This document shows, in pieces, positions 8,666 to 25,926 of a stretch of DNA of 47,955 bases (positions are counted from its first letter, which is position 1; each line of letters starts with the position of its first letter). The stretch spans positions 1-47,955 of the IMG/VR virus record IMGVR_UViG_3300045988_175607. The stretch is one strand, 5' to 3'. Source of the DNA: a virus. The translations under genes were made by a program, and so were the position numbers. Under the pieces are notes generated by a model. The model did not search any database. It saw nothing but the letters and a program-made list of their open reading frames with translations, and was not told the DNA's origin.

Positions 8666-9847
8666 AAGAGATAGTCTGGCCCTTAACTACTTTTCCTAAG
8701 ACCATGGGGGTTGCGAGTTTTGCTCGCAGCTAACGAGGGAGTCTAAATCTTAAAAGTTTTGGTGAACTTTGGTTAATTCATAAAATTTAATTTTTATATA
8801 TAATAACAAAAGTTTTAAGACATGATAATCTCGTGGGAAAGGAAATATAATGAGCATAGGAATTTATAAATATTAGAATAAACTTAATAATAATATTTAT
8901 ATTGGTTAGAGTAGTAATATTGAAAAGCGATATTCATAGCATCTCTATGATTCTACTTATCGTCCAGAAAAAGGTACTGGGGTAGATATTGCTATTCATA
9001 AATATGGAATTGAAAATTTTACTTTTGAAATTATTGAAGAATGTTCTTTAGATGTTATCAATGAACGAGAAAAATATTGGATAAATTATTACGATTCATA
9101 TAACAATGGCTATAACAGAACTATTGGAGGAGACTCTTTAAAAGGGGAAAATCATCCGCGGGCCATTTTAACTGAACAAGAAGTATGGCTATTGCGTGAA
9201 GCTTATGGACAAGGTTTATAGAGAAATAAAGCTTTTAAACCTTTTTTGGAGCGAGGAATTTCTGAACGATGCCTTATAAAAGTTTGGAATTGTGAAACTT
9301 GGCCTAATGTTCATACTGACGTCTATACTAAAGAAAATAAAATATTGCACAAAAAACAAGTTGGACATAGTGAAGATTAGGTTGGATTATCTTCATATGA
9401 TAGAGCTATTAAACAAGAAGAAATTAATGCTTGGCTAAATGATTATAATCAAGGCATGACAATTAATGCGCTTTCAAAAAAATATAATCGTGATAATGGA
9501 ACAATAGAAAAATATATTGCTAATCCATAGGCAATTACAAAAGTAAAATATAAAGGCAGAACAATAAAAAATATTGAAACAGGGAAAATATTTAAATCTA
9601 TTAGTTCTGCTGCCAAATGGGCACAGTGTGGAGCAACAACATTAACGCGACATTTAGCTGGAGATAAAGTTGCTGGAATAGTGCCTGAATTATTAATTCC
9701 TGCTCATTGGGAAGAAATTTTCTAATCCTGTATCGACTATTCCCTTTGTAGGGAAGTACTGGTGTTATTGGTACACACTGGGAAACGGTAGTTTGCATTT
9801 TAATGCAAAAGAAATAGTCAGTACCATTAGAAATAATGGATTATACG
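8666..9847 (+). ncRNA. group I-type intron (family A) in gyrB with a GIY-YIG homing endonuclease ORF
   Basis: 5' exon ends in U, intron ends in G. 3' core cgactattccc...gggaag...aaagaaatagtcagtaccattagaaataatggattatacg is collinear with the nrdD intron 1 3' core. Splicing gives RNKG-L-GEQDSHELGECLLEP, matching GyrB RYKGLGEM...TMDP. Confidence 0.7.
8850..9725 (+). CDS. GIY-YIG homing endonuclease with C-terminal NUMOD/HTH modules; 6 in-frame TAG codons
   Basis: MSIGIYKY-Q-NKLNNNIYIG-Q-SSNIEKRYS-Q-HLYDS, ...GIENFTFEIIEEC...EREKYWI. The frame is open from 8850 to the TAA at 9723 only if TAG is sense. Confidence 0.75.
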
Positions 9848-10035
9848 TAGGTGAACAAGATTCGCATGAGTTGGGTGAATGTCTGCTTGAACCTGCAACC
9901 CGCAATGTTCAACAGATAACAGTAGAAGACGCTATTGAAACTGAAAAACTTTTTGAAGTTTTTATGGGGCCAAGCACCCAGCCGCGCAAAGAATATATAT
10001 TAAAATATAGTGAGGAAGCAAACGATGTCTATTGA
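9848..10035 (+). CDS. gyrB: gyrB exon 2 (conserved GyrB C-terminus)
   Basis: GEQDSHELGECLLEPATRNVQQITVEDAIETEKLFEVFMGPSTQPRKEYI aligns to GyrB ...EQLWETTMDP...V.DA...LF..LMGD.VEPRR.FI. Confidence 0.7.
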
Positions 10036-15019: not shown

Positions 15020-15988
15020 ATGCCTTTTTTATTTTGTATATTAGGACTATTTCTTGGCGGTTTAATTATTTACCTTATACTGTCACCAAAAGTTCAAAAG
15101 ACTTAGCAGTATAATTCAGATATTGAAAAACTAAATAATAGCTTATCAACTAAGAAATAGGATTTAGAAAATAATATAAAAGAGCTTCAGATTGGCGTAT
15201 CTTCACTCCAAACAAAGAAAAAAGAAATTGAATCAAGCATTTCTTCTTTGGAGCAACAAGCTACTCAATCTGGAGAAGTATTTTTAAAACAACAATTACA
15301 ACTTGCGAAAGAAAAATTAGATAATACTACTCGAATTTTAGAAAAAGCTTATCAAGATGCTGAAGAAGAGTACAAAGAAGAATATTTAGAAACTTTAAAG
15401 AATTATTCTAAAGAATTTTTAAATCTTGAAGAAAGCAATCAAAAAAAGCTTTTAGAGTTACAGACTCAAGTTGCAGAATATCAGGCTAAGGCGACTGCAG
15501 CTGCTGAGGCCGCAAAGCGCGAAGAAGAGAAACGATTAAATATAGATTTTTATCGTTGTATGCTTACTCCAGTAGACATAGAAGAAATTGCGGCAATACG
15601 TTCAGTAGCGCATTTATTGCGCGACCCCGAACCTATTAATAAAGTGATTTGGAAAGTTTATTATGAAAAACCTTATACTGATTTAATAGGGCGAGTAATT
15701 GGCTCAGGTGTTCATTGCGGCATTTATAAAATTACTAATATTGAAAATCAGAAGTGTTATATCGGCCAAGCGGCTAACCTAGCCGATCGATGGCGTTAGC
15801 ACATTAAACGCGGCATAGGGGCTGAGCCCGCCACGCGCAATAAGCTGTACCCCGCAATGCAAGAAATTGGAGTAGAAAATTTTACTTTTGAAGTAATAGA
15901 AGAGTGTGATCGTTCGCTTTTGGACGAACGAGAAGATTATTGGCAAGATTTTTATAAAGCAAAAGAATTTGGATATAGTATAAAATAA
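15020..15988 (+). CDS. membrane-anchored coiled-coil protein with C-terminal T5orf172/GIY-YIG-like nuclease domain (DUF4041-T5orf172 architecture); 3 TAG sense codons
   Basis: N-terminal TM segment LFCILGLFLGGLIIYLIL, long coiled coil, then GIYKITNIENQKCYIGQAANLADRWR-Q-HIKRG...ENFTFEVIEEC...EDYWQ. In-frame TAGs at 15104, 15158 and 15797. Confidence 0.6.
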
Positions 15989-15989
15989 T

Positions 15990-16811
15990 ATGAAATTTGA
16001 AAATATACATGTATATAATTTCCGAGACGCTTTACGCGGAATGAGAAACCCTAAGAATTCATGGGATAGAAGTGACAGCGAATGGGGTATATGTTATGAT
16101 AGCGGACGTGATTGCATTTTAGATAAAATGATTAAATTATATCACGCTCCCGAACTTCTTTTAGCTAATCAAGAAGTTATTAATCAATGGCGAAAAGATT
16201 ATGCCCATGATGTTTTTATTGATAAGAATGAAATAAACGGAGCATATCTTTATCAAATCATTGGTCCTAATGATATGAAATTAGCACAAACTCTTATACA
16301 AGCTGGTCCTGAACATCGTAAATTTTTGAGGCAAATAATGGTATCGGTTGACATTACAGCGCCATTATACTGGCTAAAAGAATTTGATACTTATCGTGTA
16401 GGCGTTACTGCAAATTCAACTTCAACAATGCACAAGCTTACAAGTAAGCCTATTACTTTAGATTGTTTTGAGATTGATGATTATAATTCCGAAGTAATGA
16501 ATGAAATTGAAACTGGTTTGAATGAGTCTGCAACAAAGACTATTATTGATATTTGTGAATCATTGCGCCAAAAATATCTTGAGACAAAAGATAAGAGGTA
16601 TTGGAAAGAGCTTGTACGTTGGTTGCCAGAGGGTTGGTTGCAAACGCGCACTGTCACTATGTCTTATGAAAATTTGATAAATATTTATCATCAAAGAAAA
16701 AATCATAAACTTAATGAATGGTCTGGCGCCGACGATCCTAATAATGATAATTTTATACAGTTTATACGTCAATTGCCTTATGCTTCTGACTTAATTCTTT
16801 TGGAGAGTTGA
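15990..16811 (+). CDS. ThyX-like (flavin-dependent thymidylate synthase fold) protein with non-canonical active-site motif
   Basis: Aligns to the ThyX core (TAPLYWLKEFDTYRVGVTANSTSTMHKL vs [28 protein letters not shown]), but RHR and S..S.RY are replaced. Confidence 0.5.
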   Translation: MKFENIHVYNFRDALRGMRNPKNSWDRSDSEWGICYDSGRDCILDKMIKLYHAPELLLANQEVINQWRKDYAHDVFIDKNEINGAYLYQIIGPNDMKLAQTLIQAGPEHRKFLRQIMVSVDITAPLYWLKEFDTYRVGVTANSTSTMHKLTSKPITLDCFEIDDYNSEVMNEIETGLNESATKTIIDICESLRQKYLETKDKRYWKELVRWLPEGWLQTRTVTMSYENLINIYHQRKNHKLNEWSGADDPNNDNFIQFIRQLPYASDLILLES

Positions 16812-16868: not shown

Positions 16869-17231
16869 ATGTCTAAAAAGAGTGAATTTCTAAAATTTTT
16901 AAATGAACTATTGGTAACTGCTCCAGAAGAAACAATAAATAAAATGAGTGATGATGTAAAAAATTATATTGAGTTTTTGACTAAAGAAAACGATATTGAA
17001 AAACCTCTTTTCACAGAAAATGGAAAAAAGATTCTTGTTTATATGCGAGAAAATCAAAACGTACCTCTTATGAAGGCGCGCGATATTGCGGAAGGTATGG
17101 AAATTTCTTCTAAAACAGTGTCGGGCGCAATTCGTAAGTTGGTTAGCGATGGATATGTAGAAAAGGTAGGCCAAGACCCTACAGTTTATACTTTGACAGA
17201 AAATGGAAAGAATATTGAAATAGGAGAATAA
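16869..17231 (+). CDS. winged-helix transcription regulator-like protein
   Basis: 120 aa; C-terminal wHTH-like ARDIAEGMEISSKTVSGAIRKLVSDGYVEK. Confidence 0.55.
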   Translation: MSKKSEFLKFLNELLVTAPEETINKMSDDVKNYIEFLTKENDIEKPLFTENGKKILVYMRENQNVPLMKARDIAEGMEISSKTVSGAIRKLVSDGYVEKVGQDPTVYTLTENGKNIEIGE

Positions 17232-17241
17232 AAACTAAATT

Positions 17242-18168
17242 ATGGCTAAGAAAATGACTAATGTATCACATATTGAGGGCTACCTTTATCAGCATGATCT
17301 TGCACTCAAGACTGTCGCTAATAAGGAATCAAAGAATTATGGTACAGAATTTATTTCTGGTACAATAGATATAGCTACAAATGATGCAATGACTAATATA
17401 GTCCAGATTCATTTTACCTTTGTAACTCCTACTACTTCTACTGGTAAGTCTAATGCCACTTATAATATGTTGAAAAATATTTTGGATGGTAAGATTGGTA
17501 CTTATATGCAGGATGGTAAAGATGGCGCTGGTAAGCTGAGTGTGGATTCTGCTATTGCGCTTAATGAGTTCTATACTGATAGAAATGGTAAAGAAGAGCT
17601 TGTTAGCGTAAAGCGCAATGAAGGCGGTTTTGTTCATAATGCTGATTTTCTGAATGATAATGAGGAAAAGCGTGCAACTTTCAGAGAGGATATGGTAATT
17701 ACTAATGTTACTCATGTTGATCCTGACGAAGAGCGCCAGATTCCTGAGCATTGTCTTGTAAAGGGTTACATATTTAACTTTAGGAACTCTATTATGCCCG
17801 TTGAGTTTACTTGTAAGCATCCGGAGGGTATAAAGTATTTTGAGGGACTTGATCTTCCTATGTTTACTCTGGTGGAAGGCAAGCAAGTATCTGAGGTTAT
17901 AGTGCGCACCATAGTTGAGCAGAGTGCCTTTGGTGAAGATAGTGTGCGTGAGGTTAGGTCTTCTCGTAAGGGTTTTGAAATAACTCGTGCAAATCCTCAG
18001 CCTTATGATTGGGATAGTGAGGAAACTGTTACTGTTGCTGAAATTAAGGAGTTTTTGGCTCAGCGTGAAACTGACCTTGCAACCATGAAGCGTCGTAGTG
18101 ATGAATGGAAGGCTCAGCAGAATGCCAATAAAGCTCCTGTAACTAATAATGGTGGATTTAATTTCTAA
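17242..18168 (+). CDS. abundant early protein, possibly a phage ssDNA-binding or annealing partner of the Sak4-like ATPase
   Basis: 308 aa; GC-richer codons; position immediately upstream of the Sak4-like gene. Confidence 0.35.
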   Translation: MAKKMTNVSHIEGYLYQHDLALKTVANKESKNYGTEFISGTIDIATNDAMTNIVQIHFTFVTPTTSTGKSNATYNMLKNILDGKIGTYMQDGKDGAGKLSVDSAIALNEFYTDRNGKEELVSVKRNEGGFVHNADFLNDNEEKRATFREDMVITNVTHVDPDEERQIPEHCLVKGYIFNFRNSIMPVEFTCKHPEGIKYFEGLDLPMFTLVEGKQVSEVIVRTIVEQSAFGEDSVREVRSSRKGFEITRANPQPYDWDSEETVTVAEIKEFLAQRETDLATMKRRSDEWKAQQNANKAPVTNNGGFNF

Positions 18169-18261: not shown

Positions 18262-18584
18262 AAGTAAAAAGGCTCTCCCTATATAGTAATATATAGTAAA
18301 AAACTCTTGGAAAAACAGGAAGGCTGTAAAATGCTAACCCGAGCGGAAGTTATTGAGTAACGTTGATAACACGCGCAACGCATAGGTTTGAAACTTAATC
18401 TTAATTAAGAATATAAATTTAACCCACGAGCCAAGGGCGCCTATCTTGTTAAAGATAGGATGAAGAGATATGCTGAACCAGATTGGAATTGACTAATCAA
18501 TATTTAAAGATTATACCACGTCTTTAGAGAATGAAGGAAACTTCTGGAATTAAAGGATAAAAAGCCTTTAAGATAACAAATATG
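18262..18584 (+). ncRNA. ORF-less group I-type intron (family B) in the Sak4-like gene
   Basis: Family-B core elements ggaaggctg...atgctaacccgagcggaag, gcaacgcatag, cccacgagcc, agatatgctgaac, hairpin taaagg-ataaaaag-ccttta, 3' end gataacaaatatg. The joined product gives a canonical Walker A GEPKSGKTT. Confidence 0.6.
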
Positions 18585-18872
18585 CCAAAAAGTGGTAAAA
18601 CAACTATTGCAACCCGCTTCCCGCGGGCATTGCTTCTAGCCTTTGAAAAAGGATATAATGCACTCCCTGGGGTCATGGCTCAGCCCATAAATAGCTGGGG
18701 TGACTTCAAGAAAGCTCTCACAGAGTTGAGAGACCCGGACGTACAGTCCATGTTCGAGACCGTGATTCTCGACACCGCGGACATCGCATACAGCTACTGC
18801 GAGAAGTACATCTGCAGTCGTGAAAGCGATCAGAAGAATACTTACGAAACTGTTGCTGATATACCTTACGGT
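18585..18872 (+). CDS. Sak4-like ATPase, exon 2
   Basis: PKSGKTTIATRFPRALLLAFEKGY...DTADIAYSY...ADIPYG. Confidence 0.65.
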
Positions 18873-19954
18873 AAAATCTTTGCCGCTTATTAATGGTAAC
18901 ATTAATCAGAAAATCGTAGTAAAAAACTGGAACTCTGAAATGGGAATCAGAGCGGAAGGTCAGGTTTAAAAGCCTTACCACGCACAACGCATAGAAAAAT
19001 TAAACATTAGAGGAGGATTGCCTCGGCATGGGGAAATCAATAAAATTAACATTAGAGCAGGAACAACAGATAATTTATAATTATACTGTTTTAAAACAGG
19101 GCCAAAAAAAAGCGGGAGCTTTTATTCCGGTAAGTGATCATATTGTTAAAAAAGTTTTAAATAAACACAATATTCCTATTAAAACTCTTCAAGAAACTAA
19201 TGCCAATAAATATTATATTAATCATGATTTTTTTAAGGTACAAAATGAAGATATGGCTTATTGGTTAGGAATTTTAGGTTCTGATGGTTGTATTAGTTCT
19301 ATGGAAAATCAAATTTATATAGAATTGCAACGACAAGATAAAGAACTTTTAGAAAAATTAAATGCAATTATAGAGAATCAGCGCCCCGTTAAAGATTATG
19401 AAACCGCTCGAGGTTATGAAAACAGTAAATTATATTTTTATTCTAAAGAAATAAAAAATGATTTAGCTCAATATCATATAATACCTAATAAAACTTATAA
19501 TCCAGAGTATCGTTTTCCAGAAAAATTAAAGTCTCAATATATTAAAGATTATATTAGAGGATTGTTTGATGGAGATGGAAGTATTAAACAAGGGACTTCA
19601 ATTACTTGGCAAGTTGATACAGGTTCTTATGATATTGCAAAAAAAATTGTTGAATTTTTTGCAAAATATGATATTGAATTACAAATTTCTTTTTTACCCA
19701 AAAAAAATGTAACTATATATAGGGTATATGGTTATACTAAACAAAAAGTTCAAAAAATTTATAATTTACTTTATAATACACAGTCAACACTTTATCTAAG
19801 ACGTAAAAAAGAAAAATTTGAAGAACTCCTTAAATGATATAGTTTTCCACGAGACTACGACATCTTATGCATTAAGATGAAAAGATATGCTGAACTTATA
19901 CGAATAAAAAGTATAAGAACTAAAAGATAAAAAGCTTTTAGGATAACAAAATTG
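18873..19954 (+). ncRNA. group I-type intron (family B) with a LAGLIDADG homing endonuclease ORF
   Basis: 5' aaaatctttgccgc..., cagagcggaagg, gcaacgcatag; 3' ttccacgagact, agatatgctgaac, hairpin cttatac/gtataag, hairpin taaaag-ataaaaag-ctttta, gataacaaaattg then exon. Confidence 0.65.
19028..19837 (+). CDS. LAGLIDADG homing endonuclease (two motifs)
   Basis: WLGILGSDGCIS and IRGLFDGDGSIKQ. Confidence 0.8.
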   Translation: MGKSIKLTLEQEQQIIYNYTVLKQGQKKAGAFIPVSDHIVKKVLNKHNIPIKTLQETNANKYYINHDFFKVQNEDMAYWLGILGSDGCISSMENQIYIELQRQDKELLEKLNAIIENQRPVKDYETARGYENSKLYFYSKEIKNDLAQYHIIPNKTYNPEYRFPEKLKSQYIKDYIRGLFDGDGSIKQGTSITWQVDTGSYDIAKKIVEFFAKYDIELQISFLPKKNVTIYRVYGYTKQKVQKIYNLLYNTQSTLYLRRKKEKFEELLK

Positions 19955-20578
19955 AAAGGTTATACAATGGCGCAGGATGAGTTTGACACATGCATCCGTA
20001 AAATTCTCCAGTTGAATTATGGTCTTGTTCTTATTAGCCATTCGACTGAAAAGACTTTTACTAATGAAAAGGGCCAAGAGGTATCAAAGATAGTGCCTAC
20101 TCTTGATAAGCGCGCTCGCCTTGTCTGCGAGAGAACTTGTGATATAATAGGTTATTCTCGTTCTATCGATACCGATGATGGTAATAAGACTATTTTGTTT
20201 ATGCGTGGCACCCCTCGCTTTGTTGCAGGCAGCCGCTTCCGCTTCACTCCTGATTTTATTGAGTTTTCTTATGATAACTTGGTAAATGCAATTGCGGAGG
20301 CCATAGACAAGGAAGCCGCAGCTTCAAACGGTACTCTTGTTACTGATGAAAAGACTCAGGTAGTAAGTCAGGAAGAGACTTATGATTTTGAAGCTCTTAT
20401 GAAAGAGTTCCAAGATCTGGTTGGTATTCTGATGCAGAAAGATCAGGGCAATGCTATAAAGATTACTCAAATTGTTGATAAACATTTGGGTAAGGGCAAG
20501 AAGGTTGGCGATTGTACTGCCGAACAGGCTGCAATTATTGATCTTATAGTTCATGATATAAAGGCTCTGAATAAGTAA
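19955..20578 (+). CDS. Sak4-like ATPase, exon 3
   Basis: KGYTMAQDEF...LVLISHSTEK...continues the RecA-fold core; frame open from the intron end. Confidence 0.65.
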   Translation, partial: KGYTMAQDEFDTCIRKILQLNYGLVLISHSTEKTFTNEKGQEVSKIVPTLDKRARLVCERTCDIIGYSRSIDTDDGNKTILFMRGTPRFVAGSRFRFTPDFIEFSYDNLVNAIAEAIDKEAAASNGTLVTDEKTQVVSQEETYDFEALMKEFQDLVGILMQKDQGNAIKITQIVDKHLGKGKKVGDCTAEQAAIIDLIVHDIKALNK

Positions 20579-24187: not shown

Positions 24188-25926
24188 TGGAATATCAATT
24201 AATAGCACCAAGAAATAAATAGTATGCCGCGATTGAACAAGTTTTAATTAATCGAGGCATTTCTCCTTAGAATATATCTCATTATTTACGAACCAGTGAA
24301 GAAGATAATTTAAACCCTTCATCTATAATGAATATGCATGAAGGTGCAGTTATGTTAATTCAACATGTTATAAATAATGACCCCATCTTTGTGACCGTAG
24401 ACTCAGATTGTGACGGCTATACATCTGCGGCTACATTAATGAATTATTTAAACATGGCTTTTCCTTATTATACTGCACATTATGTTTCATATGCAATGCA
24501 TAAAGGGAAACAGCATGGCGTTAATTTAGATTATGTTCCAAAAGGAACTAAATTAGCAATAATACCTGATGCTGGCAGTAACCAATATGAAGAGCATAAA
24601 ATATTAAAAGAACAGGGTATTGATGTTTTAGTTATTGACCATCATATTGCTGAAAAAGTATCTGAATATGCTTGTGTAATTAATAATCAACTTTGCGATT
24701 ATCCAACAAAATCATTATCCGGCGTTGGTATGGTTTATAAGTTTTGTTCTTATATTGATAGTTTAATGGGGCAGCATTTTGCAGAAGAGCTTGCCGATTT
24801 AGTGGCTTTAGGTTTAGTGGCAGATATGATGGATTTGCGCGATCTTGAAACGCGCTATCTTATTACAAAAGGAATCCAAAATGTAAAAAACCCTTTTATG
24901 AAAGCTATGACTGAAAAGCAAGAATATTCAATTTCTAAAGCTGGTGGTCTTTGCCCTTTTTCAATAGCTTTTTATATTGCACCTTTAGTAAATGCAGTAA
25001 CTCGCACTGGCACTCAAGAAGATAAAGAGCTTTTATTTAAAAGCATGTTAGATGCTTATGCTTATAAAAAAGTTCCTTCTACTAAGCGAGGTTGCAAGGG
25101 GCAAGAGGAAACAATAGTTGAACAAGCTGTACGAATGTGCGGTAATGTTAAAAATCATCAAACTAAAATACAAGATGAATGTGTTGCGTTAATTGAAGAT
25201 ATTATTCAAGAAGAACAATTATTAAATAATAAACTTTTAATTATCCCTTTAGATAAAGAAAGCACAATGGATTCTAATTTAACGGGCTTAATTGCAAATA
25301 AATTAATGGCTAAATATCAACGTCCAGTTGCTATTTTAAATGAAAGAATTTCTCCAGAAGGAAAAATAACTTATGAAGGCAGCGGTCGTGGCTATGATAA
25401 ATCTAAATTAAAAGATTTCAGAGGGTTTGTGCGGGATTCAGGTCTTGCGCTTTATGCAGAGGGACATGAAAATGCTTTCGGACTAGGGTTCACGCGAGAA
25501 AGCCTACCGTAGTTTATTCAATATTCTAACGATGTTTTAAAAGATTTCGATTTTTCACCATGTTATCTTGTTGATTTTATTTACAATGAAAATTTTATTA
25601 ATTGTGAAGAAATTTTAGACATAGCTCGTTGGTATGATTTATGGGGTCAAAAAATGGATGAGCCATTAATTTGTTTGCAAAGAATAAAAGTTAATAAAAA
25701 TAATGTTGATTTAATGGCTAAAGGCACATTAAAAATAACTATAAATGATGACTTAACAGTTATTAAATTTGGTTCTAATGAAGAAGAATATGCTAATCTT
25801 TGTCCTGAAGTTGGCTATCAAATAATTAATATTATCGGAAAATGTAGTTTTAATAATTATACTGATAAAGCGCAAATTAAATTAGTTGATTATGAAATTG
25901 TTGATAATATGAGGTATTATTTTTAA
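24188..25926 (+). CDS. recJ: RecJ-like DHH/DHHA1 ssDNA exonuclease; full length only with 3 TAG codons read as sense
   Basis: N-terminal AIEQVLINRGIS-Q-NISHYL...DSDCDGYTSAA, DHH (VIDHHI); after the TAG at 25510 the frame continues 138 codons through an OB-fold-like C-terminus to the TAA at 25924. Confidence 0.75.

Follow-up and report, generated by a model that had tools for sequence, protein, structure and literature searches.

A large family of ThyX-fold proteins with a replaced active-site motif in anaerobes and their phages: a candidate for the thymidylate synthase step

To our knowledge, two enzymes, ThyA and ThyX, are the only known routes to thymidylate, and each is a major drug target. 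A gene of a viral DNA stretch of 47,955 nucleotides (IMG/VR record IMGVR_UViG_3300045988_175607, positions 1 to 47,955; hereafter the window) raises the question of what a protein with the ThyX fold does once the residues that define ThyX have been replaced. The gene lies on the plus strand at 15990..16811, exactly where the initial annotation had put it, and the checked open reading frame (ORF) runs from ATG to TGA and encodes a protein of 273 aa, the phage long form of the family described here. In that annotation the product was read as a ThyX-fold protein with altered motifs, either a divergent enzyme of non-canonical base synthesis or an inactive paralogue. We analyzed its fold, active-site conservation, distribution and gene neighbourhoods, and consider, with slightly better than even confidence, that it is a divergent thymidylate synthase of the ThyX superfamily.

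Comparisons at the sequence level place the protein near ThyX in a barely detectable way. The Pfam Thy1 model (PF02511) matches residues 97-238 with E 0.005 and 17.0 bits, below the gathering cutoff of 24.8, and among 77 diverse family members nine weak Thy1 matches were obtained (best E 3e-4). The only family member to clear the cutoff is a distant one, P0186 (29.3 bits). P0186 also carries a fused DUF3310, a phage domain of unknown function, at residues 302-362. A 31-sequence profile of the family retrieved no ThyX from the PDB sequences, and hhalign gave the family profile a non-significant probability with one ThyX sequence and P 0.095, also not significant, with a 31-sequence ThyX profile, to which it aligned collinearly over 152 columns. 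Taken alone, this signal is near chance. No NCBIfam model matched the protein, and PHROG 6721 matched residues 2-270 with E 9e-54, which makes it a full-length member of that group.

Structure prediction, which the initial annotation had named as the check on its fold assignment, bore the assignment out. The AlphaFold2 monomer model has a pLDDT of 82 and a pTM of 0.75, and when it was searched with Foldseek against the PDB the top 50 matches were all ThyX; in a viral structure library three relatives that are uncharacterised ranked first and phage proteins annotated as ThyX came next. The predicted model thus confirms a ThyX fold far beyond chance. Since the profile comparisons are non-significant, it is the fold, together with the bridging member P0186, that makes the protein probably a distant homologue of ThyX.

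The hhalign alignment pairs D95, P125 and K130-E131 of the protein with D41, P69 and R74-Q75 of Thermotoga maritima ThyX, respectively. The slot of the ThyX R-H-R triad (R78-H79-R80) is taken by D-T-Y-R (residues 133-136, 16386..16397, plus strand as for all features below), with T134-Y135-R136 on the triad itself. The slot of the S88/R90/Y91 motif is taken by A-N-S-T-S-T-M-H-K (residues 141-149, 16410..16436), in which N142-S-T-S145-T-M147-H148 falls on N85-E-L-S88-G-R90-Y91, so that S88 is kept as S145, R90 becomes M147 and the lid Y91 becomes H148. The replacements of RHR by TYR and of S.RY by S.MH proposed earlier are therefore correct in this alignment. Over the whole family, RHRxxSxxxxSxRY of ThyX is changed to TY(K/R)xxTxxNS(T/C)STMH, so that the ThyX motif survives only in its second Ser and in the basic residue at the third place of the triad. 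Further downstream, S-Y-E-N-L-I-N-I-Y-H-Q-R-K-N-H-K-L-N-E-W (residues 225-244, 16662..16721) aligns with the ThyX helix N163...N169...R174...H178...E182, with position 225 (N or S) on N163, R236 on R174, H239 on H178 and E243 on E182. The N163/N169/R174/H178 pattern is mostly kept while RHR is lost, and the equivalents of Arg174, which activates deoxyuridine monophosphate (dUMP), and of the neighbouring His178 are retained as R236 and H239.

Two other segments are also particular to the family. EHRKFLRQI (residues 108-116, 16311..16337) stands, by hhalign, in the slot of ThyX H53-E-T-P-F-E-H, with a two-residue insertion and the near-invariant K111 and R114 (96% each). The N-terminal family motif ALRGMRNPKNSW (residues 14-25, 16029..16064) holds R19, found in 94% of the aligned members with gaps in the rest, and hence in every member that is ungapped at that position, and S24 (93%). 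Between these two segments, residues 31-90 (16080..16259) form a variable helical insertion, unconserved in the alignment and with helices at 37-56 and 61-75 in the model; it occurs in the phage long forms, and the chromosomal forms of about 205 aa are without it and still keep all motifs.

The roles of the replaced residues are documented in ThyX. R174 activates dUMP, and S88, R90 and Y91 assist methylene transfer, their mutants being slower, more than 100-fold in the case of Y91A (PMC8316439); dUMP is held by the first Arg of RHR, the Arg and Ser of the motif and the R174 equivalent, with the Tyr acting as a lid (PMC6514825). Judged by the alignment, our protein keeps the activating Arg and the Ser, has lost two phosphate-binding arginines, and carries His in place of the Tyr lid.

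These changes do not reflect decay. Conservation was computed over 254 non-identical relatives, aligned, from phage, chromosomal and metagenomic loci. R236 and H239 are present in 100% of them, Y135, S143, S145, M147 and H148 in 99% each, R193, Y226, E243 and W244 in 98%, T221 in 97%, R220 in 96% and T134 in 95%; position 136 is K in 94% and R in 2%, and position 225 is N in 78%. About 25 polar residues in all are 94-100% conserved and grouped on the active-site elements of ThyX, and the window protein has every invariant family position apart from the variants K136R and N225S. New invariant basic residues (R19, K111, R114, R193 and R220) have appeared in the family, and these, together with the near-invariant replacement motif, indicate a maintained active site and not a pseudo-enzyme. 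The protein is thus very probably an enzyme, and the earlier suggestion of an inactive paralogue is contradicted both by this conservation and by the presence of the gene as a single chromosomal copy in hundreds of species.

The family is very large and unnamed, a feature that, like its link to dihydrofolate reductase (DHFR) described below, goes beyond the initial annotation. An initial sequence search gave at least 8,000 matches, with no functional name among the matches listed, and an exhaustive profile search gave 4,285 clusters at 50% identity. In GTDB the family occurs in at least 597 species genomes, mostly (among the matches listed) from Clostridia, Lachnospiraceae, Ruminococcus, Oscillospiraceae, Erysipelotrichia, Selenomonadales, Treponema and Gastranaerophilales, and in IMG/VR on at least 567 viral contigs. 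The carrier phages in GenBank all have strict anaerobes as hosts (Clostridium, Enterocloster, Clostridioides, Fusobacterium and Desulfovibrio), and the family is almost confined to anaerobes and their phages. Enterocloster phage PMBT24, Clostridium phage phiCTP1 and Desulfovibrio phage ProddE are carriers that have been cultured. Every annotated phage copy in GenBank is labelled 'hypothetical', the other records being without annotation; RefSeq labels the chromosomal copies 'hypothetical protein', and two UniProt entries of the family bear the automatic name 'Thymidylate synthase complementing protein'. Searches of a literature library, aimed at phage families resembling ThyX, at any third kind of thymidylate synthase and at organisms without both thyA and thyX, returned nothing on this family.

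On chromosomes, the form of about 205 aa (one short homologue is WP_004800625.1 of Amedibacillus dolichus) was found among housekeeping genes, in the orders ABC-F - family - DHFR, TatD - SDR - family - YabE, and dnaN - recF - gyrB - family. DHFR adjoins the family gene in seven genome loci (L023, L024, L026, L028, L061, L074 and L075), is one gene away in L084 and is nearby in L010, and these DHFR-linked loci span Clostridia, Selenomonadales and Treponemataceae. A DHFR-anchored set was then compiled from 80 metagenome loci with close relatives of the family-linked DHFRs. The gene beside DHFR was ThyA in 53 of them (54 if the truncated ThyA fragment of L190 is counted) and the family in 20, and just one informative locus had neither. 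Fifteen of the 20 family-DHFR pairs are co-directional (gaps of 1-35 bp, or a short ORF overlap in L191) and five are divergent. After dereplication at 90% DHFR identity, five ThyA-linked lineages stand against at least eight family-linked ones, and in a neighbour-joining tree of the DHFRs the ThyA-linked clade is nested among family-linked branches. The family gene holds the thymidylate synthase position in these operons. One lineage has the operon DHFR - family - DHFR - NfnA-like - NfnB-like, with a divergent ThyA in some strains and a transposase-like gene in others, the flanks being identical. A pair of PyrK/NfnA-like (about 298 aa) and GltD/NfnB-like (about 462 aa) genes follows DHFR in L176, L179-L183, L172, L194, L198, L200, L061 and L074; such a pair is found in many family-linked loci and in none of the ThyA-linked loci examined.

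In phages other than that of the window, the family gene is associated with deoxynucleotide metabolism. A recurrent cassette has the order dUTPase - small ORF - family - guanylate-kinase-like kinase, and a recurrent arrangement has the order NrdD - NrdG - x - x - family - x - dUTPase. In P0133 the family domain is fused to a T4-type DNMK and in P0181 to a guanylate-kinase-like kinase, the two kinases being of separate families. No canonical ThyA or ThyX was found within 10 kb of the gene in 88 genome and phage loci or in 80 IMG/VR loci (168 family-anchored loci overall), none was found by tblastn (E <= 10) in four complete carrier phage genomes, and none in the 58 kb read of the phage of the window. 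PMBT24, one of the four complete genomes, encodes NrdDG, dUTPase and a deoxynucleoside monophosphate (dNMP) kinase, and XP41-N3 is a small phage that carries the family without any folate genes.

Our preference for a thymidylate synthase rests on three observations, namely that the family swaps with ThyA beside DHFR, that it sits between dUTPase and dNMP kinase, and that it is fused to dNMP kinases; the exchange at the ThyA slot in particular points to ordinary thymidylate supply. On this contextual support the family probably catalyzes the conversion of dUMP to thymidine monophosphate (dTMP). Several points weigh against the proposal. Of the five residues that are documented as holding dUMP, two have been lost, namely the Arg that opens RHR and the one in S-x-R-Y; the Tyr lid is gone as well, and the R147-equivalent (R210) is conserved in just 50% of the 254 members. 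The substrate could therefore differ. Homology to ThyX is statistically weak by sequence, and the AlphaFold2 model is least confident at the motif loop itself (residues 139-145). ThyA lies within 5 kb of the family gene in three loci of the DHFR-anchored set, and the two are thus not strictly exclusive. In the window the gene lies within a replication module and not beside dut or a kinase, and kinase fusions and cassettes would fit the production of a modified dNMP equally well. It is because of the changed nucleotide-binding residues, the three loci with ThyA nearby and the ambiguity of the kinase linkage that our confidence is not set higher.

As for the mechanism, the enzyme would most likely methylate dUMP to dTMP with methylenetetrahydrofolate, and the dTMP would feed the replication of an AT-rich SPbeta-like phage in an anaerobic host. 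His148 may stand in for Tyr91, either as the lid or as a general acid, and phosphate binding may have passed to the new basic residues. The coupling to DHFR and the loss of RHR leave room for a mechanism that releases dihydrofolate and is possibly flavin-independent. A third type of thymidylate synthase of this kind, with the ThyX fold and with methylenetetrahydrofolate as donor of both carbon and hydride as in ThyA, is in our estimate rather improbable. It would explain the wiring to one or two DHFRs and to an NADPH-regenerating NfnAB-like pair, unlike ThyX, as well as the swap with ThyA in the same slot and perhaps also the confinement to anaerobes.

The best surviving alternative, which we regard as unlikely, is the one raised in the initial annotation: a ThyX-fold enzyme that modifies another pyrimidine nucleotide, or adds another C5 group, to make a non-canonical phage base, with hydroxymethyl-dUMP, 5-methyl-dCMP or UMP methylation as in PolB as examples. 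The remodelled nucleotide contacts (R78 to T, R90 to M, Y91 to H) agree with it, and so does the fusion of P0133 to a T4-type DNMK, a class of kinase that also handles hydroxymethyl-dCMP. PolB shows that the ThyX fold can change substrate (PMC5954106). Against these points, the same invariant residues occur in a chromosomal gene of at least 597 species, in housekeeping contexts (DHFR, gyrB, tatD) and at the ThyA slot in Clostridia, Erysipelotrichia, Selenomonadales and Treponema, and wholesale base replacement is not expected in those bacteria; moreover, no glycosyltransferase, hydroxymethyl-pyrimidine kinase or similar gene recurs among the neighbours. The fusions to T4-type dNMP kinase alone may leave room for a modified dNMP in some phages.

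Somewhat less probable again is an enzyme of folate or flavin chemistry that has given up nucleotides as substrates, such as an alternative dihydrofolate or folate reductase on the ThyX scaffold. Such an enzyme would account for the operons in which the family is joined by one DHFR or two and by a pair of NfnA/NfnB-like NADPH oxidoreductases, and for the loss of arginines that bind the phosphate of dUMP; for M. tuberculosis ThyX, a secondary role resembling that of DHFR has been proposed (PMC3352284). The equivalents of the dUMP-activating Arg174 and of Ser88 are nevertheless invariant, the dUTPase/dNMP kinase cassettes and kinase fusions indicate a deoxynucleotide product, and small phages without folate genes, such as XP41-N3, carry the family. 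A ThyX-like protein without catalytic activity, serving as a regulator that binds nucleotides, as an accessory factor of replication or as a decoy to poison the ThyX tetramers of the host, would suit the lost canonical motif and the position in this phage clade, by replication genes and not metabolic ones, and is nonetheless very unlikely given the conserved polar residues at the active site, the single chromosomal copy next to DHFR, the fusions to kinases and the many carrier hosts and phages without a canonical ThyX gene nearby to poison.

Turning to the surroundings of the gene in this phage, the same protein was found on contigs of 176-238 kb, and megablast found no match among GenBank phages for 20 kb of the window. 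The module reads GyrB, GyrA, LigA, a small ORF, a GIY-YIG endonuclease (broken here) and the target gene, followed by a winged-helix protein, YorF, AAA_24, YorH, DnaB, primase, DHH exonuclease, SF1 helicase and DnaE, a SPbeta-like arrangement found in most of the closest IMG/VR loci. The winged-helix protein (16869-17231) and the YorF-family protein (17242-18168, PF27337), identified by Pfam, make up the pair directly downstream (16869..18168), and the winged-helix gene adjoins the family gene in 35 of the 38 phage loci that have it. The initial annotation had described a neighbourhood of nucleotide-metabolism genes (dut, nrdDG and a dNMP kinase). By Pfam, a block at 32732..37632 does contain a guanylate-kinase-like kinase (32732-33337), NrdD in at least three pieces (33422-37162) and NrdG (37150-37632), all 16-21 kb downstream of the target; neither the window nor the 10 kb to its left yielded a dUTPase, and the immediate neighbours are replication genes. 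A place within a dut/kinase cluster was accordingly rejected for this window, and holds for related phages.

Directly upstream, a degenerate GIY-YIG homing-endonuclease gene recognised by Pfam (15248..15988, in the pieces 15248-15799 and 15857-15988) is intact, with 322 aa, in the sister contigs L001, L003 and L004. The family members P0192, P0220 and P0240, of 400-419 aa, each have their family domain interrupted in the middle by an HNH/NUMOD4 homing endonuclease, inserted in frame. These in-frame inserts and the free-standing upstream GIY-YIG gene mark the family gene as a frequent target of homing endonucleases, as the thymidylate synthase and nrd genes are in other phages. Several IMG/VR phages (L094 9979-10860, L095 7548-8168, L100 1698-2594 and L108 2241-3053) have the family gene as two in-frame, exactly abutting ORFs with a single stop between them, which suggests stop-codon reassignment. 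Other genes of the window are interrupted as well: gyrB is split into 6925-8667 and a C-terminal piece at 9793-10035, the gap being filled by a GIY-YIG ORF in sister contigs; AAA_24 (within 18582-20578) is split by a LAGLIDADG ORF at 19028-19837 and is intact, with 328 aa, in L004; DHH exonuclease (24328-25926) is split here and has 579 aa in L003 and L004; and DnaE (27703-32760) has an intein-like insert. Despite these many interrupted replication and nucleotide genes, Rfam at its gathering threshold gave no group I or group II intron in the window. PADLOC gave no defence-system match.

Further features of the contig were recorded in passing. Two radical SAM proteins, one of them PapB/SPASM-type and peptide-maturase-like, lie side by side at 1800-3125 and 3431-4816 with small ORFs between and around them, and this region may be a maturation cassette for ribosomally synthesised and post-translationally modified peptides (RiPPs) in a phage. 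Near 42000 the coding strand passes from plus to minus and the signs of both skews, GC and AT, are reversed, marking a module boundary. In the 10 kb of the 176-kb parent contig to the left of the window (L252), an 813-aa protein at 2277-4718 matches the shoulder domain of the major vault protein (PF11978); nearby are an RNA ligase, a pair resembling polynucleotide kinase/phosphatase (AAA_33 and Metallophos) and a PIN-PhoH protein.

Thousands of family members, from anaerobes of the human and animal gut and from the phages of these bacteria, thus appear to hold the thymidylate step with a rebuilt active site, while annotation pipelines leave them unannotated. If this is true, metabolic reconstructions of gut Firmicutes would change, both in their apparent thymidylate synthase gaps and in the logic of DHFR dependence, the predicted sensitivity of the microbiome to antifolates and fluoropyrimidines would be affected, and a common 'hypothetical' phage gene would gain a name. 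The family would also be a natural experiment in rebuilding the ThyX active site, possibly with flavin-independent chemistry on this fold.

Compared with known systems, the family is closest to ThyX (Thy1, PF02511, EC 2.1.1.148), with which it shares the fold, while it falls below the Pfam threshold, has the motif replaced, carries in the segment H53-H59 the two-residue insertion as well as K111 and R114, has gained an RNPxxSW motif near the N-terminus, and occurs almost only in anaerobes. Organisms with ThyX typically lack DHFR (PMC1971073). ThyX is DHFR-independent, with tetrahydrofolate as product and folA usually lacking, whereas the family is tightly coupled to DHFR. Since the sequence model, the defining motif and the rule of DHFR independence all fail, the family is classed as a variant within the ThyX superfamily and not as ThyX proper. 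PolB (PDB 4p5a), a ThyX paralogue by which UMP/dUMP is methylated in polyoxin biosynthesis, is described as neofunctionalised and as still methylating dUMP (PMC5954106); it lies in an antibiotic gene cluster, whereas our family has another motif set and a housekeeping or phage-replication context. PHROG 6721, to which the window protein belongs, has no annotation and no recorded link to the ThyX fold, DHFR or the chromosomal relatives. ThyA has no sequence or fold similarity to the family, which is without a conserved cysteine nucleophile, yet the two share the operon position immediately upstream of DHFR and are interchangeable there between related lineages, which implies that they serve one and the same step of the pathway and possibly share a need for dihydrofolate recycling.
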